From Gracilimonas sp. (GTDB lineage Bacteria > Bacteroidota > Rhodothermia > Balneolales > Balneolaceae), in NCBI RefSeq assembly GCF_040218225.1, contig NZ_JAVJQO010000003.1:163326-227325 (forward strand): a stretch of DNA of 64,000 nucleotides, written 5' to 3'. The notes beneath the pieces were generated by a model. That model had not been told where the DNA came from and did not search any database. It saw nothing but the letters and a program-made list of their open reading frames with translations. Each line of letters starts with the position of its first letter. Positions within the stretch are counted from its first letter, which is position 1. Position numbers and translations under genes: made by a program. Shown here in pieces: positions 5,089 to 26,254 of the stretch.

Positions 5089-5160
5089 GTTTCTTTGCTT
5101 GCGAAAAGTGAAAAGGCAAAAGTAAAAACTACGTTTGTCTTTTCACTTTTCCCCTTTCAC

Positions 5161-6090: not shown

Positions 6091-6143
6091 ATAAAATTAA
6101 TTTTACAATCCACAGAGCCACAAAATCTTATGTCTCCACGATA

Positions 6144-7175: not shown

Positions 7176-7179
7176 GTAA

Positions 7180-7869: not shown

Positions 7870-8764
7870 CGTTAGCCCGATGAGTTAGTAGTTCAACCGC
7901 CCCGTCTTTTTTCAATAGGTTAGCCCATTCATGCCCTTTTGCGGGTGTGGCTTCTGTAACCGGGATTTCCCTTTCGATATCCATTCGCCGGGAACCATCC
8001 AAAGCCAACACAGCCCCTACAAAATAAAGTATACCATTTTTAATGTAAGCGTGAGCTCCAACCGGCGAAGAACAGCCTGCTTCAAGTTCATTCAGAAAAG
8101 CCCGTTCTATATCAACACAGGTTCGGGTATCACTGTGGTTTAGTTTGTCAAAAATTTCCTGGTGCTTGGTATCCTTTCTGCTAACAACACCTATGGCGCC
8201 TTGAGATGGAGCCGGAATCATCCAATCCAGAACCTGACTAATCCTATTTTCATAACCTATCCGTTCCAGTCCGGCATAGGCAAATACAGCCCCAAACCAG
8301 TCATTATTATCTACTTTTTGAATCCTCGTTGGAACATTCCCTCTCAAACCAACAACTTCATCTCTTGGAAATCGATTTTTCCAGAACGCGGTTCTGCGAA
8401 TGCTGCCTGTTGCTATAACACGATGAATCTCCCCTTTTTCTTCTTTGGGTTTCACCAATACATCCTTAGGATTTCCTCTTTCTAAAACTGCTGCTAACTC
8501 AAGATCACCCAACAGAACGGTGGGTACATCTTTCAGAGAGTGTACAGCGAGGTCTACTTCTTCCTGAATAAGCACATCATCGAGGGCTTTGGTGAAAACG
8601 CCTTTATCCCCTAATTTATGAATGGGGATATCCTGCTCTTTATCTCCGAACGATTCTATTTCAACCAGCTCGGTTTCCACACCAATGGCATTCAGCTTAT
8701 CGCTGACCAACTCTGCCTGCCAGAGGGCTAACGTACTTTTACGGGTACCGATTTTAAGCTTCAT
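7862..8764 (-). CDS. hemC: hydroxymethylbilane synthase (porphobilinogen deaminase)
   Basis: 300 aa. It contains KIGTRKS-LALWQA, AVHSLKDVPT, RGNV-TR--K and GC--PVGA. It overlaps hemA by 11 nt. Confidence 0.95.
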   Translation of the reverse strand: MKLKIGTRKSTLALWQAELVSDKLNAIGVETELVEIESFGDKEQDIPIHKLGDKGVFTKALDDVLIQEEVDLAVHSLKDVPTVLLGDLELAAVLERGNPKDVLVKPKEEKGEIHRVIATGSIRRTAFWKNRFPRDEVVGLRGNVPTRIQKVDNNDWFGAVFAYAGLERIGYENRISQVLDWMIPAPSQGAIGVVSRKDTKHQEIFDKLNHSDTRTCVDIERAFLNELEAGCSSPVGAHAYIKNGILYFVGAVLALDGSRRMDIEREIPVTEATPAKGHEWANLLKKDGAVELLTHRANDD

Positions 8765-9932
8765 TCTGTGCCTTTTCGAATTCTTTATCGATGCGGTCTA
8801 TATGAATGGCCATGATTTTCTTTTTGATGCGCCGGGTTACTTCCTCCATTTGTGCATAAGATTCGTCATCCATCTTATGTTTTACCCTGTCCAGCTCTGC
8901 ATCCGTAATATCACTTAACCGATGATCAATTTCTTTTATACGAGGCAAAAGATACCTTGAACGTTTAACGCTCTTCAAAAAATCCGCTTTTTCTTCCGCA
9001 ATGATTTTCTTGATTTTAGGAATGGCGTTCTCTCTCTTTTCCAGTGCTTTTTTGTTGGCTTCGTGAATAGAATCCATATCAACCAATGTCACATGTTCAA
9101 CTTCTGCTACCTTTGGATCTACGTTCCGTGGAACACTTAAATCAAGCACCAGTTGCTGTTTTTGTACGGCTTTAAAATGTTCCGGGTGCAGAATGGGTTT
9201 AGTGGCCCCTGTTGCAGCAATAATTAAATCTGCTTTTTTAATTTCTTCTTCAAGCTCAGAAAAAGCATGGGCTTTGATATCAAATGAAGAAGCCAGTTCC
9301 TTGGCCCGGTCAATAGTCCGGTTCACAACAGAGATATGTTTAGCACCATTGGAAACCAGGTTTTTACAGGAAACTTTGCCCATTTTTCCTGCACCAACCA
9401 ACAAGATATTGATTGTACTCAGATCCTTAAAATGATCAAGGGCATGCTGGGTAGCAGCAAATCCGACGGAAGCCGTACCTTTACCGAAGTCGGTTTCAGT
9501 ACGGCTTCTTTTGTGTGCTCGGAAAACCGATTGTACTAACTGATGAAACTCACCAGACAGGTTATCTTTTGACTGTTTATAAGCCTGCTTTACCTGCTGA
9601 ATGATTTGTACATCTCCCAAAACTTGCGAATCCAGTCCGGTACCTACCTGATAAAAATGATTGTAGGCCTCTTCTTCTTCATGGATATAACCGTGCTTTT
9701 TAAAAAAATCACGATCCGTATTGGTTGACTTGCAAAGAGCTGAAATCAATACTTCAGCATCACAAAAGGCATATAGCTCTGTCCTATTACAAGTATCCAG
9801 CATCAGTACCCCACCTGGAATATCTTTGGTGTAAAAATCCAAAAGCTCCCTGCGATGACTGTCTAAATAAAACAATTCACGAATAGAGACCTCACTTTTC
9901 CAGTGAGAAATTCCTATTGCACTAAACCTCAT
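8754..9932 (-). CDS. hemA: glutamyl-tRNA reductase
   Basis: 392 aa. It contains TCNRTELY, the Rossmann motif LLVGAGKMG, and QILGQVK-like QVLGDVQIIQQVK. It is the first gene of the hem cluster. Confidence 0.9.
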   Translation of the reverse strand: MRFSAIGISHWKSEVSIRELFYLDSHRRELLDFYTKDIPGGVLMLDTCNRTELYAFCDAEVLISALCKSTNTDRDFFKKHGYIHEEEEAYNHFYQVGTGLDSQVLGDVQIIQQVKQAYKQSKDNLSGEFHQLVQSVFRAHKRSRTETDFGKGTASVGFAATQHALDHFKDLSTINILLVGAGKMGKVSCKNLVSNGAKHISVVNRTIDRAKELASSFDIKAHAFSELEEEIKKADLIIAATGATKPILHPEHFKAVQKQQLVLDLSVPRNVDPKVAEVEHVTLVDMDSIHEANKKALEKRENAIPKIKKIIAEEKADFLKSVKRSRYLLPRIKEIDHRLSDITDAELDRVKHKMDDESYAQMEEVTRRIKKKIMAIHIDRIDKEFEKAQNEA

Positions 9933-11875: not shown

Positions 11876-12877
11876 CTAACTGCGTCTCCAGTCGAGGTCG
11901 TCCTTAGGCTTGTTGTCCAGTATTTCTTCAATACGGCCCATCACTTCATCATCCACCTTATCTAAGATGTCCATAGTTTTCATGTTCTGCTCAATCTGTT
12001 TCACATTAGATGCCCCGGTTATAACCGTGCTGACGTTTTCATTATTCAGACACCATGCGAGCGCAAGCTGAGGCATGGGCACTCCTATTTCATCTGAAAC
12101 GGTAGCCAGTTTTTCTACTTTGCGTAATTTGGCTTTACCCTCTTCCGACTCAAGCAGTTTTTTACGAAGCCAGCTGTATTTCTCCAAGTCCAGACGTGAT
12201 CCTTCAGGAATTCCGTCATTATATTTCCCAGTTAGCAAACCACTGGCCAGCGGACTCCAGATCGTTGTTCCCAAGCCAATATCCTCATACAGTGCAGCAA
12301 ACTCCTTCTCCACTTTATCCCGCTTGAACATATTGTATTCAGGCTGCTCCATCAGAGGTGGACGAAGATGTTCTTGCCGGGCAAAATCATAGGCTTTCCT
12401 GATTTGATCAGCACTCCACTCACTGGTTCCCCAATATAGTGCCTTGCCTTCATTAATCATTTGATTCATAGCCCAAACCGTTTCCTCGACTGGTGTATAT
12501 AAATCAGGGCGATGGCAGAAAAGCAGGTCTACATAATCTGTTTGAAGTCTTTCCAGAGCTGCTTCGGTACCTTCTTTAATATGTTTGAAAGAAAGCCCCT
12601 GATCATTCGGGCCTTCACCACCCCAGAAAATTTTGGTCGAGAGAATCAAATCAGAACGCTTCCATCCGGCTTTTTTAATCACTTGACCCATGATTGTTTC
12701 TGATTTACCCATTTCGTAGCCTTCGGCATTGTCAAAGAAATTCACCCCGGCATCGTAAGCCGCTTTCATTTGATTGTAAGCCAGGTCCGTATCTACCTGT
12801 TCACCGAACGTGACCCACGACCCAAATGAAAGGGCTGACACTTTAAGTCCTGATCTTCCTAAAAACCTGTACTGCAT
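11876..12877 (-). CDS. aldo/keto reductase, Kv-beta-subunit-like subgroup
   Basis: 333 aa. It contains MQYRFLGRSGLKVSALSFGSWVTFG, FDNAEGY, DLLFCHRPD and YWGTSEW. Confidence 0.85.
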   Translation of the reverse strand: MQYRFLGRSGLKVSALSFGSWVTFGEQVDTDLAYNQMKAAYDAGVNFFDNAEGYEMGKSETIMGQVIKKAGWKRSDLILSTKIFWGGEGPNDQGLSFKHIKEGTEAALERLQTDYVDLLFCHRPDLYTPVEETVWAMNQMINEGKALYWGTSEWSADQIRKAYDFARQEHLRPPLMEQPEYNMFKRDKVEKEFAALYEDIGLGTTIWSPLASGLLTGKYNDGIPEGSRLDLEKYSWLRKKLLESEEGKAKLRKVEKLATVSDEIGVPMPQLALAWCLNNENVSTVITGASNVKQIEQNMKTMDILDKVDDEVMGRIEEILDNKPKDDLDWRRS

Positions 12878-13322: not shown

Positions 13323-13964
13323 TCATATTTTTTTTAAAAGTAAGTTTACAATCTTTGCATTGTTAATTTTTTTTGCAAAGGATAGAGCTGACTCTCCATT
13401 TCTATTTACCTCGTCATGTGCTCCTGCATTAATCAAAGCACTTGTGGTAGAAAAATGACCATTAGCAGATGCATTCATTAGAGGTGTAATGCCATGTTTA
13501 GATGTGGCATTTACATCTGCTCCATAATTAAGTAATGCCAATACCGCATAATTATTACCCCTATAGGCAGCACTGTGCAATGCAGTTTCACCATTTGTAT
13601 TAGAAATATTTGGATCAGCTCCATTTTCAAGTAAGGCGTTGATAGAGTTTTGAAAATTCATTGTAGATGCGATGATTAGGGATGTATTTTCATTATTATT
13701 TTTTTCATCTATGCTAACACCTTCCTTGATTAAATATTCTACCATTTGATAATTGTCAGAACTAATGGCATAAAACAATGCATTATTGCCATTTTCATCT
13801 TTCACATTCAAATCAATTCCGTTTTCAGCTAGTTTTTTTACCTTTTCAATGTCTCCTAAAATAGCTGACTGAAATAGTTTGCCATTGTTGCTACCTGCCA
13901 ATAATGTAGTGGTACCGACAGTGATATATACGAGCGTAGTTATGAATATTTTTAGCTGTTTCAT
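13323..13964 (-). CDS. secreted ankyrin-repeat protein
   Basis: 213 aa with an N-terminal signal peptide and about 5 ANK repeats (G-DLNVKDENGNNALFYA, G-SIDEKNNNENTSLIIA, GADPNISNTNGETALHSAA, GADVNATSKHGITPLMNAS). The coding sequence is very AT-rich. Confidence 0.85.
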   Translation of the reverse strand: MKQLKIFITTLVYITVGTTTLLAGSNNGKLFQSAILGDIEKVKKLAENGIDLNVKDENGNNALFYAISSDNYQMVEYLIKEGVSIDEKNNNENTSLIIASTMNFQNSINALLENGADPNISNTNGETALHSAAYRGNNYAVLALLNYGADVNATSKHGITPLMNASANGHFSTTSALINAGAHDEVNRNGESALSFAKKINNAKIVNLLLKKI

Positions 13965-14312
13965 TTTTCCAAAATTAAGTTCACGTTTGTCTCATCATGA
14001 GAGTTATTTTTTAAACGGAACATTCATTTTTGGGATATAGCACTTCATCACTTTCTTATAGCAAGTAATCACATAAATATTCGCTCTGTAGTTATGCTTT
14101 TTGCTAAAAATCAAATTTCAAGAGCTCCCGACATGAATTGAAAAGTCAGAACAGTTGTATAATATTTAAAAGGAAAAGCTAATGGTTACTTAATTTAGAT
14201 ATGAAATAGCTTTATGATTAGTCAAGGTTGGGTTTTCTAAATAAATGATTATGTAACTACATTAGTTACTCTTATTAGATTTCTACTTTTAAAACACGTA
14301 AAAATACATTTA

Positions 14313-15728
14313 TCAATTTTCTATAACATTACCCTCAAGATCATATCTGATCTCTTGACGCCGCCAATCAGTATCATAAAAATATCTCATTTCGTGAAAT
14401 CCTCGACCTATTGTGGGTTTACCTTCCGTAGTAAAATATTTAAACCCTATCGGTCTTTCCCACTCATCATAAAATCTTCGCTGTACATATAGAATTTCAT
14501 TAGCTACATTTATTCTTTTAATTATCGACAATTGACCTCTTTCATTATAAAAGTGCTCATACCTGTCCAATAGATTATAATTCTTATCCCAGAAACTAAT
14601 TTGTTTTAGCTTCCCATCTTCATAATAAGTTTGTCTTCTTTTTGGGGGTTGATTGTTTATAAAACTGCCATCTCCAGTCAGAAGTGTGATTTCAAAAGGG
14701 TAGCCCTCCTCTGTTAGCACGAAGTCAATGATTGCAGGTCTTCCCTCCTTAACTAATTTATTAGTATTTAGTTCATAATACCGACTTTGTATTAAGTCAC
14801 CCCAATCATTATAAATTCTTCTATTTACGTACGAATTATCACTATCATTTATCAAATTCCCATCCACATCAAAGCTCTTATATAATACCGGATACCCTTT
14901 CGAATTGTACGAATGTTCGCCACGGTGCACCATTGGGTGATTCCCGATAACAGCTTTATAATTTTTGTTAAATACTTCCCACCCTGTAAAGTCCCCTTTA
15001 TCATTATAACTTAGCTGATCGTATGCTACACCCGTCGAGTTTTCTGTAAGTTTTCCATCCAGGCCATAATTGAATAATCTTTTGATAAGCCCTTTTTCAT
15101 CATATTCCATTCTAACCTCATAGAACTCAAATTCTGGACGAATTCTTACTTGATTACTGTCTAAATCAAATCTTTGCTCTTTTACAAATCCTCTTTCATC
15201 TATACTCCATTCATATCTATGTATACCCCAATCATTTTCTATGGGGGTATTATTTATCGAAAAGAACTTAAGGCTTGAACGTTTACTATCATTGAAGTAG
15301 TAGACTTCTTTAAATACCTGACCACTCACTGCTGTTGGTTTATCCCATTGATCAAAGAAAGTTCTTATCTCCTTACTTTTTTCGTATTTGATTACTGTCT
15401 TCGGGGCCCTAATGAAATAATTGAATAAAACACGATTTGGTAAGTTAACGGGAAATAGTTCATCCCCTCTTTTGTATTCGACCATTGTAGGTCGTCCTTT
15501 CTTATTATATGTAATTTTAAAATGCAGGCAGTGCTCTGCCTCTTGCTGCGAAATTTTGTATGCACCCTTCAATTCTGCATAAGGAGACTCTCGAAACACA
15601 ATCTTCCTGTAAAACTTCGTGCTGTCGTTATCTGCAGCACTTAACTCTGTTCGGGGAAGTAAAAAACCAATTACTACTATTAGTATTAAATAAAAAGCAC
15701 TTTTAATTATGTCAGCTGTACTAATCAC
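14313..15728 (-). CDS. exported repeat protein with YD/RHS-like (or MORN/YwqK-like) beta-hairpin repeats
   Basis: 471 aa. The GTG start overlaps the upstream stop by 4 nt (GTGA). There is an N-terminal hydrophobic anchor. Y(N/D)xxG motifs recur: YNKKGRP, YDEKGLI, YNDKGDF, YNSKGYP, YNDWGDL, YEDGKLK, YNERGQL, YDLEGNV. Confidence 0.55.
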   Translation of the reverse strand: MISTADIIKSAFYLILIVVIGFLLPRTELSAADNDSTKFYRKIVFRESPYAELKGAYKISQQEAEHCLHFKITYNKKGRPTMVEYKRGDELFPVNLPNRVLFNYFIRAPKTVIKYEKSKEIRTFFDQWDKPTAVSGQVFKEVYYFNDSKRSSLKFFSINNTPIENDWGIHRYEWSIDERGFVKEQRFDLDSNQVRIRPEFEFYEVRMEYDEKGLIKRLFNYGLDGKLTENSTGVAYDQLSYNDKGDFTGWEVFNKNYKAVIGNHPMVHRGEHSYNSKGYPVLYKSFDVDGNLINDSDNSYVNRRIYNDWGDLIQSRYYELNTNKLVKEGRPAIIDFVLTEEGYPFEITLLTGDGSFINNQPPKRRQTYYEDGKLKQISFWDKNYNLLDRYEHFYNERGQLSIIKRINVANEILYVQRRFYDEWERPIGFKYFTTEGKPTIGRGFHEMRYFYDTDWRRQEIRYDLEGNVIEN

Positions 15729-17020
15729 TCTAAACCTTTTACTTGTTTGGTTATTAAATCAACAATATTCACATTTGGAACTCCATTTCGATCTGAAATA
15801 AAAGCAATTTTGCTACTGTCAAAAGACCAACTTGGTGATACATCTTCAGAAATATGTTTTGATAGATTTGTTGCTTCTGAACCATCTTGCTTCATGTAAT
15901 ATATTTCGGCGTTACTTTTAATTCTCGATACCCATGCTATCATTTTAGCATTAGGAGACCATCGTGGATTATTATCTCGGTTCAAATTATTGGTAAGTCT
16001 ATGCAATTTGTCATCTTTCAAATTCAGCTTGTACACCTCTGGATTACCATCCCGTCTAGAAACCCAAATCAATTCTTCACTATTTTGAGGTGAAAATTGT
16101 CCGTTAAAGTCTGGAAATATTGAATTCGAAATATTGAGAACCTCTTCCGTTTCTATTTCAAATAAATAGATGTTGTAAGTTTTATCAACAAAATCTGTGA
16201 AGACAATTTTACGGTCATCATGAGAAAACCGGGGCGAATAGCTTTGTTTTGAATTGATAATTTTTCTTTTATTTAAACCATCCAAATCAATTAAATGAAT
16301 TCCCTTCTGGCTAAGAAAAAGAATTTTTTCTCCGCTGTTTGACCACTGCAAACTACTATAATTCAATTCTTCAGACGTCAATTTTATAAGCCCACTACCA
16401 TCTGAATTCATAATATATATTTGTGGTGTTCCAGTCCGATCAGAAATGAATGCAATTCTTTTTCCATCCTGAGACCATATAGCACCTTCATCATTAGCAG
16501 AATGATTTGAAAGGTTTTTAATCTGTCCATTCTTATAGAGCATTATATCTCTGTTACCAAATTGATCTGATGCAAATAATAGCTCCAGTTTAACAGGTGA
16601 CCACTTAGGTTCACTATGCCAAGGACGATCGTCTATTTCATTAAGAATCCGTTTTCCCTGAAAAAACTCTTTATGACCCTGAATGTTTAAATTACCAGTA
16701 AGAGTCTCATAATGTCTTTTAAACTCTGCATATACCCTATAATTACCAGACAAATAACCGACCCATGAAAGTGTATTTTCAGAGATATTTATACTATCAA
16801 GTTTTGTTCTACCAATATCACCACTATTGAAGTAACCTTTTATCTCACCACTTGCATGAAATAGAAATAACTTAATTTTTTTGCCTCTTTCTGATTCTAG
16901 CTCCCAAACACCTTCATACTCTGCCTGCCCATATAAAGATGTGCTGCATATTAGGATTGCAAAAAAAATACCCCATTTACTTCTTACTTGAATATTATTT
17001 ATCAAATAAAACCTTATCAT
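15725..17020 (-). CDS. TolB-like PD40 (WD40-like) beta-propeller protein, exported
   Basis: 431 aa. PD40 repeats are visible: WSQDGKRIAFISDRTGTPQIYIMNSDGS, PRFSHDDRKIVF, PRWSPNAKMIAWVS...IYYMKQDGS, PSWSFDSSKIAFISDRNG. The start overlaps the upstream stop (ATGA). Confidence 0.8.
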   Translation of the reverse strand: MIRFYLINNIQVRSKWGIFFAILICSTSLYGQAEYEGVWELESERGKKIKLFLFHASGEIKGYFNSGDIGRTKLDSINISENTLSWVGYLSGNYRVYAEFKRHYETLTGNLNIQGHKEFFQGKRILNEIDDRPWHSEPKWSPVKLELLFASDQFGNRDIMLYKNGQIKNLSNHSANDEGAIWSQDGKRIAFISDRTGTPQIYIMNSDGSGLIKLTSEELNYSSLQWSNSGEKILFLSQKGIHLIDLDGLNKRKIINSKQSYSPRFSHDDRKIVFTDFVDKTYNIYLFEIETEEVLNISNSIFPDFNGQFSPQNSEELIWVSRRDGNPEVYKLNLKDDKLHRLTNNLNRDNNPRWSPNAKMIAWVSRIKSNAEIYYMKQDGSEATNLSKHISEDVSPSWSFDSSKIAFISDRNGVPNVNIVDLITKQVKGLE

Positions 17021-17457
17021 TTAAATGCTGCCATATCATAATGATCTGTCCAGCGTGCAATTTTCCCCTCATGCATAATTATTGTTGTTGAAAACTTAAC
17101 ACTTCTTGATTTTCCATTGTGTTCTCCAAGCCATGTACCATGAATATCGGCTATATTACTGTTTATTAGATAAATATCATTGACTACCAATTCCCTTTTT
17201 TCTGCAATACCGGCTTCTTTCCTTCCCTTAAAAAAGGTTATTGCTTTTTCTTTATCCCATATAAAAGGCGCTGTTTTATCTTCATAGACAAGATTCTCAT
17301 GGAATAATTCTTGCATTCGATCCGTGTCTAAGTCACTAATCATAGTAATAAACGATTCCGCTATTTTAACTGTCAGTTGTTGTGATTCTTGTGCATAGAT
17401 AATTCCATTGAGGATTAACAAAAAGATGAGCAAGCTAAATTTTTTTTTGCAGTTCAT
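17017..17457 (-). CDS. NTF2/SnoaL-like fold protein with signal peptide
   Basis: 146 aa with a signal peptide (LLIFLLILNGIIYAQ). The length and pattern (IAESFI...D-DRMQELFHENLVYED ... KIARWTDHYD) fit SnoaL_2-type proteins. Confidence 0.55.
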   Translation of the reverse strand: MNCKKKFSLLIFLLILNGIIYAQESQQLTVKIAESFITMISDLDTDRMQELFHENLVYEDKTAPFIWDKEKAITFFKGRKEAGIAEKRELVVNDIYLINSNIADIHGTWLGEHNGKSRSVKFSTTIIMHEGKIARWTDHYDMAAFK

Positions 17458-17479
17458 AAGAATATGCTTTGTAACTTGG

Positions 17480-17989
17480 TTAAAATTGATACTCAGGAGG
17501 CGCTATATTATTCAAGCGTAAATAAATTATCATCTGTCCCTTGTGATGGGCGTTATGATCCAAGACAGAAATCAAGTTTGTTAGTAGTCTATCGTTGTAT
17601 TTAGTTTCATTCAGAAAATTTTCCATTTCATCGAAACCATTTTTTGTCCATTCAATCAATTCAGCTTTTGACATCGAATTCTCATCGCCTGGATTCCATT
17701 TATTATCTTTTCCGGAAAACTGATTTCGCATAAATTCCAATGTATAAGCAATGTGATAAGCTTGAGCAGAAAATGACCTAACACTATCAACTGGTGCATA
17801 TGCATATTTATCTTCGGGCATTGCCTCTAATATGCTTAGAGTATTTGATTTCGATTTTTTGAAGTTTTCCTGTATTACATCAAAATTTAAATCTTGGTGA
17901 TATAAACCTGCGGAATAATAAATCAGCATCGGTACTATCAAAACCAATGAGTTTATATACTTGGTTCTAGGATTTTTAAACATATTCAT
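17480..17989 (-). CDS. DinB-superfamily four-helix-bundle protein with N-terminal hydrophobic segment
   Basis: 169 aa. The putative metal-binding His pattern is present (AYHIAYTLEF ... LDHNAHHKGQ), and the length is typical of DinB/DinB_2. Confidence 0.7.
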   Translation of the reverse strand: MNMFKNPRTKYINSLVLIVPMLIYYSAGLYHQDLNFDVIQENFKKSKSNTLSILEAMPEDKYAYAPVDSVRSFSAQAYHIAYTLEFMRNQFSGKDNKWNPGDENSMSKAELIEWTKNGFDEMENFLNETKYNDRLLTNLISVLDHNAHHKGQMIIYLRLNNIAPPEYQF

Positions 17990-18157
17990 GTTGATAACTT
18001 TAAATTTTACACACGATTTATAAAAGGCCCAATGACTTACTCAGCCTAAACTGTTCATTAATAGGATAGGATTAGTAATGCTTATATCTAAGCTTTGTAA
18101 GCTCATCAGGCTTTTGGGTTAGTAATTTAAAATTGCATCACTATGGGCAATATCTTT

Positions 18158-19561
18158 TTAAAATTTATTTCCTCTTCCGGTAGCAATAACTCTATTTATA
18201 TTATGCTGAATAGTAACTTCAGTACCATTTAAAGTGTATAAATCTAGCTCACTTAAAGGTGGAAGGTAATCTGGAATTATAGCCACTCTATCGGAGGCTA
18301 CAATATTTGGATTAATAAGTGCCTCCTGCTCAGCAACTGGCCATCTAATACCCAAATCAATCATCCTACGTCCTTCTCCAAAGAACACTTCCTGTCGTAA
18401 TAAATAAAGTGTTGTAAGGGCATCGGTAGCAGTTGAAATAGAAGCTATATCTGCCGGGGTCAAAGACGTACCTGAAATAGTTGGGATTTCTACATTATTG
18501 GTTCGTTCGATAACAAGTCCAGATCTAAACGGATCAGAATCACTAGCCCTGACTGTGAAGGAAGTATTATTGGGTCTTTGATCTACTGTTCCGTCTCCAT
18601 TTCTACTTTCTCCTGAATCATCGATTATTACTGTTGTTCTGGAGTTGACAAGGTTGACCAAGTTTGTCATATCTGTTAAAGCTCCGGGTAAATTGCTATC
18701 AGCTAGTTTTGCCTCAGCTAGTATTAAATGAGCTTCTTCTATCTTTAGGAGTGGAACATCTGAATCTAAAGAGCCACTTATGTCAAAGTACTTTGGATCT
18801 AAAAAGTCCAAGCTTGGAAGTGGCTGAAGATCATCAAAATTACCTCTGTCATGAACAGCATTCTGAAATGTATTTGCAGGTCCATTAACTGCATCAAAAA
18901 GCACATACCTGACATACCCACCACCAGCATCTGCTGTTATGGCTGAATTAGCATCAGCAACTGCTTCAGACTGATTTCCAAGATTATAGTGTGCTCTGGC
19001 TCTCGCCAGCATATAACCCACATTATCTGGATCTATAGCTAATGCAGAAGAAAAGTCTTGCACTGCTGTTTCAAGATGTGTGCTTGGTGATACAGCAGGG
19101 CCAAGCTCTTCAGCCGGTAACACTGTAAATATTTCACCAGCCAATAAGGAAGCAATACCTTTGAAAAAGTAAGCTTCGGCCTCTAATTCATCAACCGGGT
19201 CTGTAGGAATCACTTCACTGAGCACATATTCAGCTTGCTCTCTTAACGTTCCTATACTTACCTGGCAATTCAGGAAATCTGTATCTATGTCTCGATAAAT
19301 ACCTGCATCAACATTCTGGTTAAAGAAAGATTGAACATTGACATAATTATCTGTTGCTAATTCCTGTGTTGTTAAGCAGCTATTTGCTGTACTTGCCAAT
19401 TGCTCTTGAAGTCCATTAACAAATGCTCTAGATGGATTTGGCAGTTCTCTGGCAGCATCAAGTGTTAAGTTTGGATTTTCAACACCAGTGCCATCAATTA
19501 AATCACAAGAAGTCTGGATAAATAAAGCCAGTACTAATAATAAGATTACTCGATTATTCAT
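18158..19561 (-). CDS. RagB/SusD-family outer-membrane lipoprotein
   Basis: 467 aa with a lipobox (FIQTSC) and TPR-like helical content. It lies 38 nt downstream of a SusC-like gene, the canonical pairing. Confidence 0.75.
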   Translation of the reverse strand: MNNRVILLLVLALFIQTSCDLIDGTGVENPNLTLDAARELPNPSRAFVNGLQEQLASTANSCLTTQELATDNYVNVQSFFNQNVDAGIYRDIDTDFLNCQVSIGTLREQAEYVLSEVIPTDPVDELEAEAYFFKGIASLLAGEIFTVLPAEELGPAVSPSTHLETAVQDFSSALAIDPDNVGYMLARARAHYNLGNQSEAVADANSAITADAGGGYVRYVLFDAVNGPANTFQNAVHDRGNFDDLQPLPSLDFLDPKYFDISGSLDSDVPLLKIEEAHLILAEAKLADSNLPGALTDMTNLVNLVNSRTTVIIDDSGESRNGDGTVDQRPNNTSFTVRASDSDPFRSGLVIERTNNVEIPTISGTSLTPADIASISTATDALTTLYLLRQEVFFGEGRRMIDLGIRWPVAEQEALINPNIVASDRVAIIPDYLPPLSELDLYTLNGTEVTIQHNINRVIATGRGNKF

Positions 19562-19599
19562 ATCTCTAATATTTTTTTTAAAAATTTCATTTCAGGTTA

Positions 19600-22425
19600 T
19601 TAAAAATCGATTTTAATACTACCTAGGAATTGTCTGGGTTGAGATTCTGTACCGTATACAAACCCTCCTGTACCTACTTCAGTAGTTCCCTGGGTTCCAA
19701 CATTTGCTCCGGTTACTTCAGGATCGATGTTATTAGCTACAAAATTGAATGGATTTAGCGCCATTGCACCGATACTGATATTCCGTACTATTCCAGAATA
19801 CCATTCTTGAGGCAGGGTATAGTCAAGAGATATGAGCCTAATTTTAGTGTAGGTCGCGTCTTCCACCCATAATCCAGCCAATTCGTTAAAGCTTACACCT
19901 TGTGCTCCAACCGGATATCTATCGTCTGGTGCCCCACGAAGAAATTTTAGTACCTCCGTAGTATTAACTACTTCTCCACCTAATTGATAATCACCAGATA
20001 CATTGAATGCCAGTGATTTATAGTTGAAGTTCATACCAAATGACCCAAATAGATCTGGAATGGAACTACCCAAGTCATCATTAGGAATAACTTCAACTAA
20101 ATTCCCCGCACCATCAAATACAGGGTTATTTCCTCGGAAATAACCAATCGGCTTTCCTTCTTCAACCCAAGCCCCTAGAAATGCAAATCCACCTATTTGG
20201 AATGGCGCACCACCAGATGCTAATACTTTATTAGTAAAGCTATTTGCTGAAGCTCTAAATGATAGACTATAGTCCCTACTTTGAAGTACTTGTATTCTAC
20301 TAGATAACTCCCAGCCTTTATTTTCAATTTCACCTACATTTTGAAGAGAAGCTCCTAATCCTGTTGAAGGCGCATTATTTGAATTAAATAAAGCATCTTC
20401 TGTAACAGTACTATAATAAGTAAACTCTAAGGTAGCCCTGTTATTCCAAAATCCCAGATCTAAACCTGCCTCATAAGTCTTGGACCTTTCAGGCTTAAGG
20501 TTTGGATCGCCCGCTGTTCCAAATTCAATTGACTGACTTCCTCTGAAAGGATCAATATCAGCTAAAACCTGATTAGAGAATGGTGTTGGGAAGTTACCAG
20601 CTTCTCCGTAATTAGCTCGTATCTTAACATTGGAAATTGCGTTCTGAGGAACCAGGTTTTGGAAAAAGCTTTCTGAAGATAATGAATAGCTAACGCCTAC
20701 CTTTGGAAATAACTGTGGATCAACCAATTCTCCAAAAGCTGTGTTATCATCAATGCGGGCTCCAAATTCAATAAAATACTTGTCTTTAAAACCTATATTC
20801 TCCTGGAAAAAGAATCCATAATTGGCAAGTGTACGTCGAAAATCTAATACTGAGGTCTCACTTGCAGCATTCATAGTTTTAACACCGTCGGGTATTTCAC
20901 TACCTAGAATATTTACCTGCCGGTCGTCTGTTCTAAAAAACTGACCTCCCAACAAGGTTATTGTAGAAATATCCTCAAAATCTTTCTGGTATTGTATATT
21001 ACCTTCAAGCGTAATTCCGAGATAGTCTCTTTCGAAGAGTTCAATGGAACCTTGATCAGCAGTTCCAGGAGGTACTACACCTAATGCGATTAAGTAAGCA
21101 TTGGTTTGAATTTCCCTTTGCCTAGTTGTTCGATTATCCAAACCAACTGTAGCTTTAGCAGTTAATCCTTGTCTGATATCAAAATCAAAATTATGAGATG
21201 TCTGAAATCTCTTGTTGTCTTCTGTTAAATCCACATTGTCTTGGATATCAGTTATCATCTCATCCAAAGCTGTGTAATCCTCTTGACTTAACTCATCAAC
21301 ATTCCCAAACCTTGCCCCTTCAAGACTATTAAATGATCCTGCGGAACTATTGGCGTTTCTGTCTCTATCGTATTCTGAGCTAGTGAACCCAATTGAGCCA
21401 GTATATTTAACTATATCATTCACATTTGCTGATACAGTTGTTCTTAAGCTATGCCGTATTTCTTCATTATTTTTCCTAAACCCGTCATTGTCTAGCATGG
21501 AACCGCCAAAAGAGTAGGTAATGTCTTCACTACCTCCACTTGCAGACATCTTATATTCTTGTACAACTCCTGTTTCAAATAAAATATCAGCAGTTCTGTC
21601 AAAAAACAGAAAGTCTTCTGTTCCTTTAGTTATCCCAAGGTTACTTTCGAAAGTAAAATTGCTAGCTCCTCTTACTCCTTTCTTTGTAAATATTTGAATT
21701 ACGCCATTCGCAGCATCTGCTCCATATAAAGTAGTTGCAGCTCCTCCCTTAATGAACTCTATCCTTTCTATATTCTCCAAAGGAATATCAGCAACTGAAG
21801 AACTTTCAGCCCCACCAGTTGCAATAGATTGATTTGCTCCAGTAGTATTATCTACTCGAACACCATCTATATAGATTACCGGTGTTGAAGAAGTTAATGC
21901 TGAATTTACACCCCGGCCCCTTATCAATGAGGCTGTACCAGGTTGTCCTGAAGACAATCTTATTTGTGAGTTTGGCAGGTTAGCCTGTAAAACTTGGTCT
22001 AACCGTATTGCAGGAATAGATTCAAGATCTTTTGCACTTATAACATCAACCGTCGTAGATAAGCGCTTCTTGTCAATTGCCTGTCCCTGCCCTGTGACCA
22101 CAATTTCTTCGAGACCAGCGATATCCTCTTCTAAAGAAATATCTAAAGTCTCAGAACCATCAACATTTATAGTAAGATCCTGCCGGAGATATCCTATATA
22201 AGTTACTCTGACATTGTATGTACCATAAGGGATGTCGGAAATTGTAAACCCTCCATTCACATCTGATGAAGCCCCTCTACCTAATTCGGAAATATATATA
22301 TTCGCGCCAGGTAATTCTTCACCTGTTACTGCATCAACTATTGTGCCTGTTATAGAACCACTTTGGGCGTAAGCCGTAGTAGTCCAAAACAATGCTAAAA
22401 CCAGAAATAGTAGCTTTCTAATCAT
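19600..22425 (-). CDS. SusC/RagA-family TonB-dependent outer-membrane transporter
   Basis: 941 aa with a signal peptide and a CarboxypepD_reg-like N-domain (GSITGTIVDAVTGEELPGANIYI...GTYNVRVTYIGY). It has the TonB-box-like EEIVVTG, a plug region (IRGRGVNS...PVIYIDGV...IERIEFIKG) and a C-terminal aromatic residue (KIDF). There is no STN domain. Confidence 0.9.
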   Translation of the reverse strand: MIRKLLFLVLALFWTTTAYAQSGSITGTIVDAVTGEELPGANIYISELGRGASSDVNGGFTISDIPYGTYNVRVTYIGYLRQDLTINVDGSETLDISLEEDIAGLEEIVVTGQGQAIDKKRLSTTVDVISAKDLESIPAIRLDQVLQANLPNSQIRLSSGQPGTASLIRGRGVNSALTSSTPVIYIDGVRVDNTTGANQSIATGGAESSSVADIPLENIERIEFIKGGAATTLYGADAANGVIQIFTKKGVRGASNFTFESNLGITKGTEDFLFFDRTADILFETGVVQEYKMSASGGSEDITYSFGGSMLDNDGFRKNNEEIRHSLRTTVSANVNDIVKYTGSIGFTSSEYDRDRNANSSAGSFNSLEGARFGNVDELSQEDYTALDEMITDIQDNVDLTEDNKRFQTSHNFDFDIRQGLTAKATVGLDNRTTRQREIQTNAYLIALGVVPPGTADQGSIELFERDYLGITLEGNIQYQKDFEDISTITLLGGQFFRTDDRQVNILGSEIPDGVKTMNAASETSVLDFRRTLANYGFFFQENIGFKDKYFIEFGARIDDNTAFGELVDPQLFPKVGVSYSLSSESFFQNLVPQNAISNVKIRANYGEAGNFPTPFSNQVLADIDPFRGSQSIEFGTAGDPNLKPERSKTYEAGLDLGFWNNRATLEFTYYSTVTEDALFNSNNAPSTGLGASLQNVGEIENKGWELSSRIQVLQSRDYSLSFRASANSFTNKVLASGGAPFQIGGFAFLGAWVEEGKPIGYFRGNNPVFDGAGNLVEVIPNDDLGSSIPDLFGSFGMNFNYKSLAFNVSGDYQLGGEVVNTTEVLKFLRGAPDDRYPVGAQGVSFNELAGLWVEDATYTKIRLISLDYTLPQEWYSGIVRNISIGAMALNPFNFVANNIDPEVTGANVGTQGTTEVGTGGFVYGTESQPRQFLGSIKIDF

Positions 22426-22602
22426 AAAAACCTCTTTTAGTTTATGTTTTTTTAATTATTTAAGTAATGACTATTGATAAGTCATCACGATAAATAAGAG
22501 GTGATTAGATTGGATAAAACTTAATGTGATAACACGGTTACTATTTATGGATATCCTGCACTGTTATAAGGAGAAGCTGAATTTCCAGAAAGGTAAAATT
22601 AT

Positions 22603-23367
22603 CTAATTGAAGCTCTCTTTTTCCATTTTCTTTAAAAACCCGTTGTAACTACGGCTCATTCTTAATTCAGTCCCATCTTTCATTATCACATTGTAATCTC
22701 CGTAAAGCAACTCTACAAATTTGTCGACACAGTCCAGATTAATAAAAGTAGATTTATGAATTTGGTAAAATTTATTTTGATCAAGTTGCTCCAATAGACC
22801 ACTCAGAGTGCTTCTAATCATATACTTTTTCTTTTCAAAGACAATTTTGACATAATTACCCGATGACTCCACCCATTCAATATCATATTGCCCTATAATC
22901 TTTACATCTTTCCCACTTTTTAAAACGAATCTATCACTGTTTTTTTGATCTGCACTAGAAACTATATTCTTATTATTAGCTAAAAGTCTTTTATATCTAA
23001 TGTTATACTTTGCTTTTTCAATGATAGTTAAAACTCTTTCTTCATCAATTGGCTTGTGAATATAATCGAATGCATTAACCTCAAAAGCACGTACTGCATA
23101 TTTACTGAAAGCCGTTACAAAGACTATTAGCGGAACATTGAATTCAATTTCTGAAAGTACATCAAATCCATTTTTTGCAGGCATTTCTATATCTAAAAAA
23201 ACCAAATCTGGCCGTAATTTATTAATCTCATCAATAGCTTCTTCACTATCATTGTAGCAACCAATTATGGTTACAGTTTTTTCTGCCGTTAAAATTTGTT
23301 GTATTCGTTCTACACTATATTTCTCATCATCAACAATAGCTACTTTTAAAAAATCATGGCTATCCAT
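22603..23367 (-). CDS. LytR/AlgR-family response regulator (REC + LytTR DNA-binding domain)
   Basis: 254 aa. It has a receiver domain (VAIVDDE ... PDLVFLDIEMP) and a C-terminal LytTR-like block (IEWVESSGNYVKI...FYQIHKSTFINL). Confidence 0.9.
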   Translation of the reverse strand: MDSHDFLKVAIVDDEKYSVERIQQILTAEKTVTIIGCYNDSEEAIDEINKLRPDLVFLDIEMPAKNGFDVLSEIEFNVPLIVFVTAFSKYAVRAFEVNAFDYIHKPIDEERVLTIIEKAKYNIRYKRLLANNKNIVSSADQKNSDRFVLKSGKDVKIIGQYDIEWVESSGNYVKIVFEKKKYMIRSTLSGLLEQLDQNKFYQIHKSTFINLDCVDKFVELLYGDYNVIMKDGTELRMSRSYNGFLKKMEKESFN

Positions 23368-23597
23368 ATTACTTGATATATTTAAACTTAGTTCATTTTA
23401 CCCTTGTCACTCAACAGTTTTAGACCGAATAAACTGAATAAATGTTACACTCATAACTCCCTAAGTTTGCTAGAATGTGATAACTCGCTTCCTGTTGGTG
23501 ACCTCTCGCACTCAATCGGATAAAGAATGTCGTAAATTAATTTAATAGTCGTATCAATTTTCCAGATTTCAATTACCAAACATTTCAATCCAAGACT

Positions 23598-24737
23598 GTG
23601 AACAAAAAATATTTTAATCAATTCAAACTAGAAAAACCCCTTTTATATGTTTTAACTGGGCTTTGTTTAGTTACAATGTTTATTACCTTCATTAAAATAG
23701 TATACTTCTATAACATTTGGCCAACACAGTTAAATCGTCAAGTATGGGAAATATTACTCGAAGATTTAACAATTGATATTTTGACCTTTACTAGCTTTTC
23801 TGTTTTTATTCTATACTCTACAAGCTATTTTTTTTTTAAAGAATACAATGGTTTTATAATCATTAGTTTTCATCTTTTCTTTTCATTTGTTTCAAGTCTT
23901 ATTGCTCATGTACTTGATGTAGTTTCTTCACTTTCTTTTGGATCAATAACAATCGATACAATATTTAATTACAATCATATAACAGCTGTATTTAGAGATG
24001 TTGACCGTAATTTCTTCCTGTATTTCTCTATTCTATCCATCGCATACATATATCACTACTATAAGCAGTATAGGGTAGCAGAATTCGAACGAGTTGAAAC
24101 CAATCATAAACTTACAATTGCAAATCTAAATTTGATTCAATCACAGCTCGAACCTCATCTTCTCTTTAATACGTTGAATAGTATAAGCTCTCTCGTTTAT
24201 TCTGATAAAGATAAGGCCGTTAAAACGATTACTAATTTAGGTGACATTTTAAGGGCAACATTAATGCTTCGTGACACACAATTTATAAGTGTCAAAGAAG
24301 AGATATCTTATTTAAGTAACTATATTGAAATATTGAATCTAAAATTCAATGACCGAATAATATTAAGGGAAAAAATCAACAAAGAGACAATCGATAAAAA
24401 AATACCTTCCTTAATTTTACAACCAATTATTGAAAATGCTGTAAAGCATGGTCTAAATGATTCCAATACTGATTTAGAAATATTGTTATTTACAGATATT
24501 GATAAAGAAGGAAAACTTGTCATTGATATAAAAAATTCGGGAAGTAAAATTAACCCTAAGGCTGATTTCAATAAAGAAAATTTAAAAAAGGGATTATCTT
24601 TAGTAAAGCAGAGGCTATCTTTGATTTACAAGAAAGGATTTACTTTTGACATTCAAAACTTAGATGATCCAATCTTCAATGTCGGGGTAAAAATTGTAAT
24701 TGATGAACCTAAAATTGACCTCCTTAAATATAATTAA
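23598..24737 (+). CDS. LytS/YehU-type sensor histidine kinase (multi-TM sensor + His_kinase + HATPase_c)
   Basis: 379 aa. It has several N-terminal TM segments, the block QSQLEPHLLFNTLNSISSLV (typical of PF06580-type kinases) and the N-box region LILQPIIENAVKHG. Confidence 0.85.
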   Translation: MNKKYFNQFKLEKPLLYVLTGLCLVTMFITFIKIVYFYNIWPTQLNRQVWEILLEDLTIDILTFTSFSVFILYSTSYFFFKEYNGFIIISFHLFFSFVSSLIAHVLDVVSSLSFGSITIDTIFNYNHITAVFRDVDRNFFLYFSILSIAYIYHYYKQYRVAEFERVETNHKLTIANLNLIQSQLEPHLLFNTLNSISSLVYSDKDKAVKTITNLGDILRATLMLRDTQFISVKEEISYLSNYIEILNLKFNDRIILREKINKETIDKKIPSLILQPIIENAVKHGLNDSNTDLEILLFTDIDKEGKLVIDIKNSGSKINPKADFNKENLKKGLSLVKQRLSLIYKKGFTFDIQNLDDPIFNVGVKIVIDEPKIDLLKYN

Positions 24738-25120: not shown

Positions 25121-25194
25121 GGGCCCGTAGCTCAGTTGGTTAGAGCAGTCGACTCATAATCGATTGGTCGCAGGTTCAAGTCCTGCCGGGCCCA
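25121..25194 (+). tRNA. tRNA with CAU anticodon (elongator Met or lysidine-modified Ile2); CCA not encoded
   Basis: Hand-folded cloverleaf: acceptor GGGCCCG/CGGGCCC, D-arm GCTC/GAGC, anticodon arm GTCGA-CTCATAA-TCGAT, T-arm GCAGG-TTCAAGT-CCTGC, discriminator A. A paired G1-C72 excludes an initiator tRNA. Confidence 0.9.
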
Positions 25195-25207
25195 CTTTTA
25201 ATTCATT

Positions 25208-25255
25208 TCAAAAAAACAGAAAACCCGCACAGATCAAATGTCCTGCACGGGTTTT
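25208..25255 (-). terminator. intrinsic terminator of the USP gene (also positioned to stop tRNA read-through)
   Basis: On the minus strand, AAAACCCGTGCAG...CTGTGCGGGTTTT forms an 8+3 bp stem. It is followed by TTTTCTGTTTTTTT. Confidence 0.7.
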
Positions 25256-25291
25256 CCCTCACCTACCTAATTTGCAAATCAATCATCTGAG

Positions 25292-26254
25292 CTATTCAGG
25301 TCGTAGCGTCATCAATGGTTTTTTGAGATGCTGGGCTACAATAGCTGTGGTTGAACCAAGTAATATTCGGGCAATCCCGGTTCTTCCATGTGTACTCATG
25401 ATGATCATATCTGCACTTTCGTTTGCGTAATCGCAAATTTCAGTATGGGCCGAGAAGCCTTTTTTCACAATACTGATGAATTTCACAGATTCTGATCCGG
25501 TGTCTGTTTCACGAATCAGCAGGTCTTCAAAGTCAACTCCGGTTCGTTCTACTTTAAAACCTAATTCCGGATGCTTATCAAAATACTTGCCAATATTCTG
25601 AATCAGTGAATGATAGACTGCTGAATCATCTTCCATAGCAAATGGCATTACCTCCATTCCCAGTGAGTACGGCTCAATGATGTGCATCAAGGTGATGCGG
25701 GCATCAAAGGCATGAGCAAACTCAAAGGCCTGAACCAAAGGTGCTACTGAGTCGCCGGACCCATCCATCGGCACCAGGATTTCATGAATCTCATCTTCAC
25801 CAAAAGCGGTGTCGATGCTTAGCACCGGTTTTTCACAGTATCGTATTACTTTTTCAGTTATATGACTGCGGATTTCATCCGTATCATGACCACCTTTATT
25901 GCTCATAATGAGCAGGTCGTACTGACTTTCGTTGGCTTTGTTAGCTATAACCTGAGAGGGTTTTCGTCCAACAAGATTAATCAGCTGACCGCGATGTTCT
26001 TTGGGAATATATTCCTCGGCAATTTCATGAAGCTTTTCATTGGCTGTTTTCAGTACTTTAGGGTATAGGTCTTTTTCCATGTCAAATGGAACACCCAGAT
26101 GCTGCATACTTTCATCATAATAGCTCATGAGTGGAATCACATGAATAAGATCGACGGTGCTGTCGTACATCTCCACAAATTTAGCCGCCATTTTAACCGC
26201 TTCAAGGGAAGCTTCTGAAAAATCGGTAGGGACTAAGATATGACTGGCTTTCAT
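25292..26254 (-). CDS. tandem-domain universal stress protein
   Basis: 320 aa with two UspA-like halves, each ending in an ATP-binding-type motif (MSNKGGH.. / MSTHGRTGIARILLGSTT). Confidence 0.85.
   Translation of the reverse strand: MKASHILVPTDFSEASLEAVKMAAKFVEMYDSTVDLIHVIPLMSYYDESMQHLGVPFDMEKDLYPKVLKTANEKLHEIAEEYIPKEHRGQLINLVGRKPSQVIANKANESQYDLLIMSNKGGHDTDEIRSHITEKVIRYCEKPVLSIDTAFGEDEIHEILVPMDGSGDSVAPLVQAFEFAHAFDARITLMHIIEPYSLGMEVMPFAMEDDSAVYHSLIQNIGKYFDKHPELGFKVERTGVDFEDLLIRETDTGSESVKFISIVKKGFSAHTEICDYANESADMIIMSTHGRTGIARILLGSTTAIVAQHLKKPLMTLRPE

Follow-up and report, generated by a model that had tools for sequence, protein, structure and literature searches.

A SusC/SusD-type transporter locus without recognised carbohydrate-active enzymes, beside a candidate LytTR regulatory system, in Gracilimonas sp.

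The stretch of DNA analysed here, hereafter the window, comprises 64,000 nucleotides (nt) from Gracilimonas sp. (Balneolaceae), traced in our searches to a metagenome-assembled genome with the assembly accession GCA_040220595.1 (contig JAVJUN010000008.1), and all coordinates count from window position 1. It carries the genes of a SusC/RagA-type TonB-dependent transporter and of a SusD-like lipoprotein (together SusCD), followed on the same strand by four genes for proteins of the DinB, NTF2/SnoaL-like, PD40-propeller and YD-repeat types (dinB, ntf2, pd40 and rep, hereafter the tail) and flanked on the other side by the adjacent and divergent genes of a LytTR-type response regulator and a histidine kinase (Table 1). 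The eight open reading frames (ORFs) reported in a preliminary description of this DNA were recovered in our ORF list at the same coordinates, on the same strands and with the spacings claimed, namely 38 nt between susC and susD, 168 nt between susD and dinB, 22 nt between dinB and ntf2, and 4-nt overlaps at the ntf2/pd40 and pd40/rep junctions. The ATGA overlap of ntf2 and pd40 requires the start codon that yields a PD40 protein of 431 amino acids (aa); with the NCBI start, which lies five codons later (426 aa), an 11-nt gap separates the two genes. A signal peptide or an anchor is visible in all six products of the proposed operon, whereas the lipobox cysteine is found in the SusD-like protein only. 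A ninth gene, encoding an exported ankyrin-repeat protein (ank), is considered together with these eight.

Table 1. Genes and candidate regulatory sites of the Gracilimonas locus (window coordinates)
Feature	Coordinates	Strand	Evidence or remark
Sensor histidine kinase	23598..24737	+	PF06580 His_kinase 77.9 bits, weak HATPase_c match; GC3 (G+C content at third codon positions) 0.237
REC-LytTR response regulator	22603..23367	-	PF00072 80 bits, PF04397 69 bits
SusC/RagA-type TonB-dependent transporter	19600..22425	-	TIGR04056, PF13715, PF07715, PF00593
Divergent SusD-fold surface lipoprotein (SusC lid)	18158..19561	-	Predicted structure and lipobox C19
DinB/YfiT-fold protein with N-terminal hydrophobic anchor or signal	17480..17989	-	PF05163, PF12867
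Exported NTF2/SnoaL-like protein	17017..17457	-	Sub-threshold SnoaL_2, TIGR02096
Exported PD40 beta-propeller	15725..17020	-	PF07676 E = 1.9e-34
Short RHS/YD-repeat beta-hairpin sheet protein, N-terminally anchored or exported	14313..15728	-	Foldseek on AF2 (AlphaFold2) model
Exported ankyrin-repeat protein, beyond the coordinates of the preliminary description	13323..13964	-	Ank Pfam families E ~1e-33; signal peptide; GC3 0.243
tRNA-Met gene, kinase-side island edge	25121..25195	+	ARAGORN; Rfam tRNA 76 bits
GTTATCACAT box, kinase/regulator intergenic region, 107 nt 5' of regulator ATG	23475..23484	-	Candidate LytTR operator (autoregulation)
GTTATCACAT box, 98 nt 5' of susC ATG	22524..22533	-	Candidate LytTR operator
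GTAATCACAT box, inverted, ~100 nt 5' of ankyrin gene ATG	14065..14074	+	Third and last exact GTWATCACAT match in window

The SusC protein scores 423.2 bits against TIGR04056 (cut-off 368.25), which places it in the SusC/RagA subfamily, and it has a signal peptide, a CarbopepD_reg_2 domain (PF13715, 75.3 bits), a plug (PF07715, 73.9 bits) and a barrel (PF00593, 115.5 bits). The region of the signature motif TIGR04057 is there but divergent (38.9 bits, under the cut-off of 46.2), and Pfam and NCBIfam scans returned no match to an STN domain, in agreement with the preliminary description, whose assignment of this gene we retain. The protein is 77-79% identical to SusC of the Balneolaceae loci L008-L015 and, as is typical of the SusC/RagA class, the gene for a SusD-type lipoprotein lies directly 3' of susC, across the 38-nt gap. 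The identity of this second protein could not have been read from family models: none of the Pfam SusD models (PF07980, PF12741, PF12771, PF14322) matches it at E <= 0.01, only weak TPR similarity being seen, no NCBIfam SusD model matches it, and no SusD chain occurs among its PDB sequence matches. The preliminary call of a SusD was right nonetheless. An AlphaFold model (pLDDT, the predicted local distance difference test score, 83.8; pTM, the predicted template-modelling score, 0.86) gave 32 best Foldseek matches in the PDB that all belong to the SusD/RagB family (probability 1.00; template-modelling (TM) score 0.32-0.56), headed by 3lew, RagB, BT2263 and ButD with E-values of 1e-6 to 1e-4 and a TM score of ~0.5. 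The lipobox cysteine C19 is invariant in 30 homologues and is followed by an acidic stretch, DLIDG. Judged by its predicted structure, the protein has the SusD fold and stands outside the sequence definition of the Pfam SusD families. The locus belongs to the SusC/RagA family and the SusD fold class and is not a canonical polysaccharide-utilisation locus (PUL).

The comparison with other genomes shows that this SusCD pair belongs to a broad and poorly annotated family. More than 538 homologues of the SusD-like protein were found, labelled "hypothetical" or "TPR protein", and at least 534 SusD-like loci are present among species-representative genomes of Balneolales, Cytophagales, Flavobacteriales, Saprospirales, Rhodothermales and Gemmatimonadota. 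In a collection of 1.84 billion representative proteins, 76 clusters (50% identity) reach E <= 1e-30, and no canonical SusD appears among the 2603 matches of that search. Taking the SusD-like family as seed, we retrieved 80 genome loci and used all nine proteins of the Gracilimonas locus as queries against them. The genes for SusC (~940 aa) and the SusD-like protein (~475 aa) are adjacent in 76-77 of these 80 loci, and the gene after susD is mostly convergent or distant, which makes SusCD, in the normal case, a unit of two genes that stands on its own. The 129 immediate neighbours include a single sulfatase and not one glycoside hydrolase; the others are heterogeneous and mostly of the housekeeping or outer-membrane kind (GWxTD, pyruvate kinase, RNase HII, LptD, LpxD, Wzy_C, Porin_10 and second SusCD pairs). 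Closer to home, the Pfam and NCBIfam scans place none of the nine products of the Gracilimonas locus in a family of carbohydrate-active enzymes (CAZymes) or peptidases, which upholds what the preliminary description had said of its own gene set. Since CAZymes are missing from the surroundings of this SusCD family as a whole, a non-glycan ligand is supported, and the earlier proposal to that effect appears reasonable. Our attempt to name that ligand from the neighbours of the family was abandoned, as they are too heterogeneous. The sequence of the SusD-like protein is conserved at 40-49% across classes, a level that would seem atypical of glycan-specific SusD proteins.

Some members of the family in Balneolaceae call for separate comment. 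The metagenome-assembled genome OZ244932.1 (L010, L011 and L015) holds three recently duplicated SusCD copies in different contexts: one with a GWxTD gene and an integrase, one with a stand-alone LytTR protein, a PF00144 hydrolase and an S9 peptidase, and one with a kinase, two LytTR regulators and an M3 oligopeptidase. The GWxTD protein (~485 aa, PF20094) is a conserved upstream neighbour of the pair in Balneolaceae (for example L008:2031-3488, L011:5559-7016 and L013:5531-7024, among others), and we found no mention of it in the literature searched. Tyrosine integrase genes lie directly 3' of the SusD-like gene at L011:12138-13355, L013:12114-13331 and L049:11363-12580; the domains Arm-DNA-bind_5, SAM_5 and Phage_integrase were confirmed for L011, and two of the three were matched in the neighbour scan. 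The presence of integrases in three genomes suggests that the site 3' of susD is an insertion hotspot. The closest homologue of the SusD-like protein (73%) comes from contig CAYGNU010000170.1 (L008), which is labelled "Roseivirgaceae"; it groups inside Balneolaceae in our trees and has the GWxTD/pyruvate kinase context of that family, and the contig may be mis-binned.

The regulatory genes beside susC form a LytTR two-component system, the regulator combining REC and LytTR domains and the neighbouring kinase being of the PF06580 type. No HTCS (hybrid two-component system), SusR-like or extracytoplasmic function (ECF)/anti-sigma regulator accompanies them, as the preliminary description had observed. 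The best NCBIfam match of the regulator is BtsR-like (145 bits, under the equivalog cut-off of 246). The kinase has ~4 N-terminal transmembrane helices, its hydrophobic segments falling within residues 11-41 and 84-119, and lacks a large periplasmic domain; Pfam detects neither 5TMR_LYT nor GAF in it, and it has no NCBIfam match. The association of such regulators with this transporter family extends beyond Gracilimonas. LytTR-domain regulators occur directly 5' of susC in L010, L014, L015, L055 and L080, with a kinase and two REC-LytTR proteins in L015, a REC-LytTR protein in L055 and in L080, and stand-alone LytTR domains, with no receiver domain in any frame, at L010:6611-6982 (123 aa) and L014:6561-6980 (139 aa). 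Together with a box that the regulator and susC promoters share, these five loci make the link between SusCD and LytTR stronger than the preliminary description could show.

The box in question, GTWATCACAT, has three exact matches in the window as against 0.32 expected, a number that 0 of 100 shuffles reach, it being understood that the degenerate W position was chosen after the third site had been seen and that these statistics are partly post hoc. All three copies fall in non-coding DNA of the locus, ~100 nt 5' of a start codon. The regions upstream of the regulator gene and of susC are identical at 19 of 23 nt around the box (1 of 400 shuffles reaches 19/23). Exact copies of GTTATCACATT are absent from the related loci save for an unrelated site in L029. 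The shorter core ATCACA fares better: it lies 102-106 nt 5' of the susC ORF start as called in four of the five LytTR-adjacent loci scored (this locus, L010, L014, L015 and L055) as against 2 of 60 others. The four loci that bear it are this locus, L010, L014 and L015, all from Balneolaceae; L015 reads GTCATCACAT, and its likely true ATG is 12 nt downstream of the called start, which puts the core ~117 nt from the ATG. Judging from their position and conservation, the boxes are plausible operators that would be bound by the response regulator. Our literature search found no link between SusC/SusD and either LytTR regulation or DinB, and we regard LytTR control of a non-glycan SusCD system as credible and, as it appears, undescribed so far.

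Base composition sets the whole locus apart from its surroundings. Nine consecutive genes between 13323 and 24737 (ank, the tail, susD and susC, and both genes of the two-component system) have GC3 values of 0.237-0.306, whereas the remaining 37 genes of the window have a mean of 0.400 (standard deviation 0.040) and a minimum of 0.309. In neighbour-joining trees the window SusC and SusD branch as sisters of a Balneolaceae clade, to which they are 77-79% and 70-73% identical, respectively, and in two members of this clade, L008 and L013, GC3 is equally low over the entire locus. These observations fit the import of the whole ~11.5-kb block from a lower-GC relative within Balneolaceae. The ankyrin gene probably belongs to this unit, in view of its low GC3 and of the GTAATCACAT box found ~100 nt 5' of it. 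The shared atypical GC3 and the occurrence of a candidate operator on both sides of the tail argue against a purely chance juxtaposition of the tail with SusCD.

The DinB assignment of the preliminary description is borne out by two Pfam models above their cut-offs (PF05163, 36.2 bits against 23; PF12867, 35.8 bits against 24.8) and by a match to PDB 6iz2 (E = 1e-7); the histidine triad H79, H145 and H149 is intact in the translation. No relative above 38% identity was found in metagenome contigs, and those that were found share no neighbours with it. The NTF2/SnoaL call is tentative: the protein resembles SnoaL_2 (E = 5e-5) and TIGR02096 (E = 1.2e-5), but its score stays below the family cut-off (24.2 against 27 bits, and 19.5 against 25.2 for DUF4440), and full-length PDB alignments to limonene epoxide hydrolase, which are non-significant, support it weakly. 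The PD40 propeller is securely recognised by its PF07676 match. It is TolB-like but scores under the TolB cut-off (TIGR02800, 214.8 bits against 343), and it has a very weak match to Pectate_lyase22 (E = 7e-4, 18.9 bits, under the cut-off of 30); the N-terminal ~110 residues, a beta domain, match no family and no PDB entry, and neither Pfam nor NCBIfam detects a peptidase or other catalytic domain. An identification with TolB itself was rejected, given the score under the equivalog cut-off, the unmatched N-terminal domain and the absence of adjacent tol/pal genes.

The YD-like protein matches nothing by sequence in Pfam, NCBIfam or the PDB, yet the earlier call proves sound when its AF2 model (pLDDT 87.1, all beta-hairpins) is compared with RHS/YD shells by Foldseek, the best match being RhsA 7q97 (E = 2.5e-13) and the range over RhsA, Tc and teneurin shells 1e-13 to 1e-9. 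The TM score to these shells is only 0.14-0.35 because the protein, at 471 aa, is far too short to close a shell. Some of its homologues match PF05593; only 15 relatives were found in 5.8 billion sequences, the closest sharing 57% identity in a different context. That it could be an Rhs toxin was considered and rejected, a closed shell taking ~700 aa or more, the alignment ending in repeats and no toxin or additional domain being present. One homologue, P0004 (L006:10001-11713, 570 aa), has an extra C-terminal domain of ~130 aa; this protein, the product of L004:1230-1739 (169 aa) and the N-terminal domain of the window PD40 protein have a "G-x-W" beta-rich look in common, with no significant similarity established among them. 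The four tail proteins and the ankyrin protein begin with a Sec signal or an anchor, none of them has a lipobox, and they are therefore predicted, from their N-termini, to be periplasmic or anchored in the inner membrane and not to reach the cell surface. The "surface capture" that the preliminary description had envisaged is accordingly unlikely as far as the accessory proteins are concerned.

The same description had presented DinB, NTF2, PD40 and YD-like proteins behind SusCD as a candidate module and had asked whether the neighbourhood is conserved. In the 80 loci searched it is not, and by the refuting condition that this description had itself set the six-gene module fails; only sub-pairs of the four tail genes recur elsewhere. 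The exported downstream proteins are cargo particular to one genome and not a conserved module. In L004, a YD protein 47% identical to that of the window and an NTF2-like protein 46% identical share a gene cluster with a pair of amidohydrolases and another RHS-like protein. In Flagellimonas nanhaiensis (L003) the YD homologue has a penicillin amidase on one side and, on the other, a PF00144 serine hydrolase and an amidohydrolase, in L115 it precedes a trypsin-like (Trypsin_2-like) protein, and in L088 it precedes another exported NTF2-fold protein. Two apparent further matches were discarded, as the DUF4440 protein of L088 has no significant similarity to the window NTF2-like protein and the 169-aa gene product beside the YD homologue of L004 is not a DinB. 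The YD homologues mostly adjoin a regulator gene, of the AraC type in L003, L004, L088 and L113; in L006 the neighbour is a LytTR two-component system together with a MacB-type permease. The PD40 protein has a single close full-length homologue, P0137 (L091, 40%), the remaining matches being generic propellers, and its gene stands divergent beside a His_kinase and LytTR pair and an aldo-keto reductase. Aldo-keto reductase genes are found near the island in the window (11876-12877, minus strand, native GC3), at L091:6952-7947 and at L114:8196-9704; the L091 enzyme is 38% identical to that of the window and the L114 one adjoins a YD homologue. This association could be a coincidence or a weak recurrence.

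Taken as a whole, these data lead us to favour, tentatively and with somewhat less than an even chance of being right, a single horizontally acquired island of nine genes (13.3-24.8 kb) whose core is a LytTR-regulated orphan SusCD importer. The membrane-embedded kinase, lacking a large periplasmic domain, would sense a signal whose source is probably the membrane itself or a partner protein, and would phosphorylate the REC-LytTR regulator. The latter would bind the GTWATCACAT boxes ~100 nt 5' of three genes (its own, susC and ank) and thereby switch on susC-susD, transcription probably reading through into dinB-ntf2-pd40-rep. At the cell surface the SusD-fold lipoprotein would cap SusC, which, powered by TonB, would import a non-glycan ligand, and the four tail products and the ankyrin protein may then bind or modify the imported compound in the periplasm or at the inner membrane, the candidate roles being those of a His-triad metalloenzyme (DinB), a pocket protein (NTF2-like), a propeller (PD40) and a sheet (YD). 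Co-transcription across the susD-dinB gap, which we infer, is consistent with the absence of any terminator-like site between susD and dinB, inside the tail or in the other intergenic gaps; the overall counts of the sigma-70 promoter and terminator scans were at or below the shuffled expectation and are uninformative. As to the ligand, a peptide-like or other amide-containing small organic compound, and not a polysaccharide, seems most likely on the present sequence comparisons. This guess is made because homologues of the YD and NTF2-like proteins sit with amidohydrolases, an acylase and serine hydrolases, and because paralogous SusCD loci of Balneolaceae have S9, M3, S12-type and aspartyl-protease-like genes at their flanks; PD40 propellers, moreover, commonly accompany peptide-handling enzymes.

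Several points weigh against this reconstruction. None of the 80 orthologous SusCD loci carries a homologue of the DinB, the NTF2-like, the 431-aa PD40 or the YD protein, and the functional coupling of the tail to SusCD rests on one genome. The 168-nt gap before dinB leaves room for a separate promoter. The island contains no integrase, and no att-like repeat of the tRNA-Met region was found at its far edge. The half-site spacing of the box differs from the classic LytTR spacer of 12-13 bp and no second half-site is evident, its statistics are those of a partly post hoc motif, and the ATCACA core may be conserved by descent, the four loci being related Balneolaceae. LytTR systems are numerous in genomes of Bacteroidota-like bacteria, where some adjacency is expected by chance. 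The island encodes no hydrolase for any substrate, a possible activity of DinB aside, and the peptide or amide reading is guilt by association from distant homologues of 31-57% identity.

One may therefore wonder whether two units merely lie side by side, the LytTR system with SusCD on the one hand and, on the other, dinB-ntf2-pd40-rep, with or without ank, as a separate operon with its own promoter, serving for instance in envelope stress or detoxification, and either co-transferred or accreted at a variable site 3' of susD. This is possible, if on balance rather doubtful. The lack of the tail from all 80 orthologous loci speaks for it, as do the usual confinement of SusCD to two genes followed by a convergent or distant one, the gap before dinB, the integrase genes directly after susD in L011, L013 and L049, which suggest a variable site, and the YD homologues that mostly stand beside an AraC regulator of their own. 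Yet the tail, SusCD, the two-component system and ank have the same atypical GC3, no terminator-like site follows susD, candidate operators bracket the tail (one at susC, the other at ank), the tail contains no regulator gene, and homologues of PD40 and YD occur beside LytTR systems elsewhere (L091 and L006).

The remaining explanations do away with nutrient import or, on the contrary, return to glycans. Ankyrin and NTF2-like folds are known as immunity-protein folds, and one could imagine a function in interbacterial competition or defence, with SusCD as the entry gate of a toxin and the exported ankyrin, NTF2-like, DinB, PD40 and YD proteins as periplasmic immunity or decoy proteins. The horizontal acquisition and low GC of the island would suit such a role, as would the export of all accessory products, which have no recognised catalytic families, and the presence among the structural matches of the SusD-like protein of ButD, the ButCD pair being a SusCD without CAZymes through which a protein toxin is taken up (PMC11467351). 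We consider it very unlikely, however: there is no toxin, type VI secretion system (T6SS), PAAR or Rhs-toxin domain nearby, PADLOC returns only generic ankyrin matches and nothing specific, the YD and NTF2 homologues co-occur with hydrolases and AraC regulators and not with toxin genes, and a positively regulated importer would be a misfit in an immunity role. A conventional PUL whose glycan-degrading enzymes are too divergent to be recognised or are encoded elsewhere in the genome strikes us as more improbable still. It can invoke the SusCD architecture and the very weak Pectate_lyase22 match of the PD40 protein (18.9 bits against 30), but Pfam and NCBIfam recognise among the nine products none of the linked CAZymes that characterise a canonical PUL, the SusCD family has no CAZymes beside it in 80 genomes, one sulfatase apart, no HTCS, SusR or ECF/anti-sigma regulator is present, and a SusD-like protein conserved at 40-49% across classes would be, by our reckoning, atypical of a glycan-specific one.

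In functional terms the locus comes closest to described SusCD transporters that have no CAZymes. RagAB of Porphyromonas gingivalis (PDB 6sln, 5cx8), whose ligand is a peptide, likewise consists of a SusC/SusD-type pair with a lipoprotein lid and no CAZymes, and RagB is the second to fourth best structural match of the SusD-like protein (12-14% identity, TM score ~0.45); unlike the present locus, it has no link to a LytTR system or to DinB, NTF2, PD40 and YD genes. The BT2261-2264 system of B. thetaiotaomicron (PDB 5fq8, 5fq4) combines a SusCD core with extra non-enzymatic partners and no assigned glycan, and BT2263 is a structural match. The Fjoh_0403-0405 SusCDE complex, likewise a SusCD core with such partners and no assigned glycan, has been reported to be abundant and "of unknown function" (PMC12611786). 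In both of these systems the extra partners are surface lipoproteins, whereas the extra proteins encoded here have no lipobox and are not conserved with SusCD. ButCD of Bacteroides fragilis (PDB 8ypt), a conserved SusCD without glycan-utilisation genes and again a structural match, is the entry gate of BfUbb (PMC11467351). It differs from the Gracilimonas locus in that ButC is without the N-terminal extension domain that the window SusC has, and in its Zn-metalloprotease neighbour, its restriction to Bacteroides and the absence of any described LytTR control. PusCD of Flavobacterium johnsoniae imports phospho(inositol)lipids and is tied to phosphorus scavenging (bioRxiv 10.64898/2026.09.03.749221); it is likened to our locus by description, as a SusCD-like pair for a non-glycan ligand, and the locus is without phosphatase or Pho-type genes.

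On the regulatory side, LytS/LytR and BtsS/BtsR (YehU/YehT) also pair a PF06580 kinase with a REC-LytTR regulator. BtsSR controls a transporter, and the window system is likewise placed to control a transporter gene. The window regulator, in contrast, stays under the equivalog cut-offs of both BtsR and LytR, the window kinase is without 5TMR_LYT and GAF, and the target here would be an outer-membrane SusCD, for which we found no description in the literature. Finally, the shells of RhsA (7q97), Tc toxin BC and the teneurins share the beta-hairpin YD repeat architecture with the YD protein, which differs by its length of 471 aa, its sheet that is open and not closed into a cocoon, and its Sec-type N-terminus, as well as from RHS toxins by the absence of a toxin or autoprotease domain and of a T6SS context.

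SusCD transporters are signature nutrient gates of Bacteroidota-like bacteria and, to our knowledge, nearly all of those that are understood import glycans under HTCS, SusR or ECF control. It is tempting to go one step further than the island itself and to speculate that the present family, unrecognised across the Fibrobacteres-Chlorobi-Bacteroidetes (FCB) group in at least 534 species, imports one particular, universally available non-glycan compound, that the extra copies of Balneolales and Rhodothermales have been wired to LytTR regulators through a conserved operator, and that the Gracilimonas regulon has recruited periplasmic DinB, NTF2, PD40, YD and ankyrin proteins for a peptide-like or xenobiotic ligand; taken in its entirety, we find this proposal unlikely. 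If LytTR control is true, it would constitute a regulatory class not yet described for SusCD systems, and the biology of these transporters would gain a regulator class and probably a ligand class, while the annotation of SusD partners now called "hypothetical" or "TPR protein" would be corrected. The broader lead lies in this orphan family of SusCD pairs and its apparent connection to LytTR regulators in Balneolaceae, the accessory genes being a curiosity of a single genome unless a common transcript and a common ligand can be demonstrated.

Outside the island the window offers a few observations of its own. A haem biosynthesis cluster (4105-9932, minus strand) encodes GlutR (hemA), porphobilinogen deaminase, HEM4, URO-D, coproporphyrinogen oxidase and ALAD; its GC3 is native, and nothing evident ties it to the island. 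Rfam gives tRNA only, with no riboswitch or small RNA in the window. Beyond the tRNA-Met gene, a strong terminator-like hairpin with a 16-bp stem is located at 25218-25257 (minus strand), 3' of a Usp-family gene at 25292-26254.

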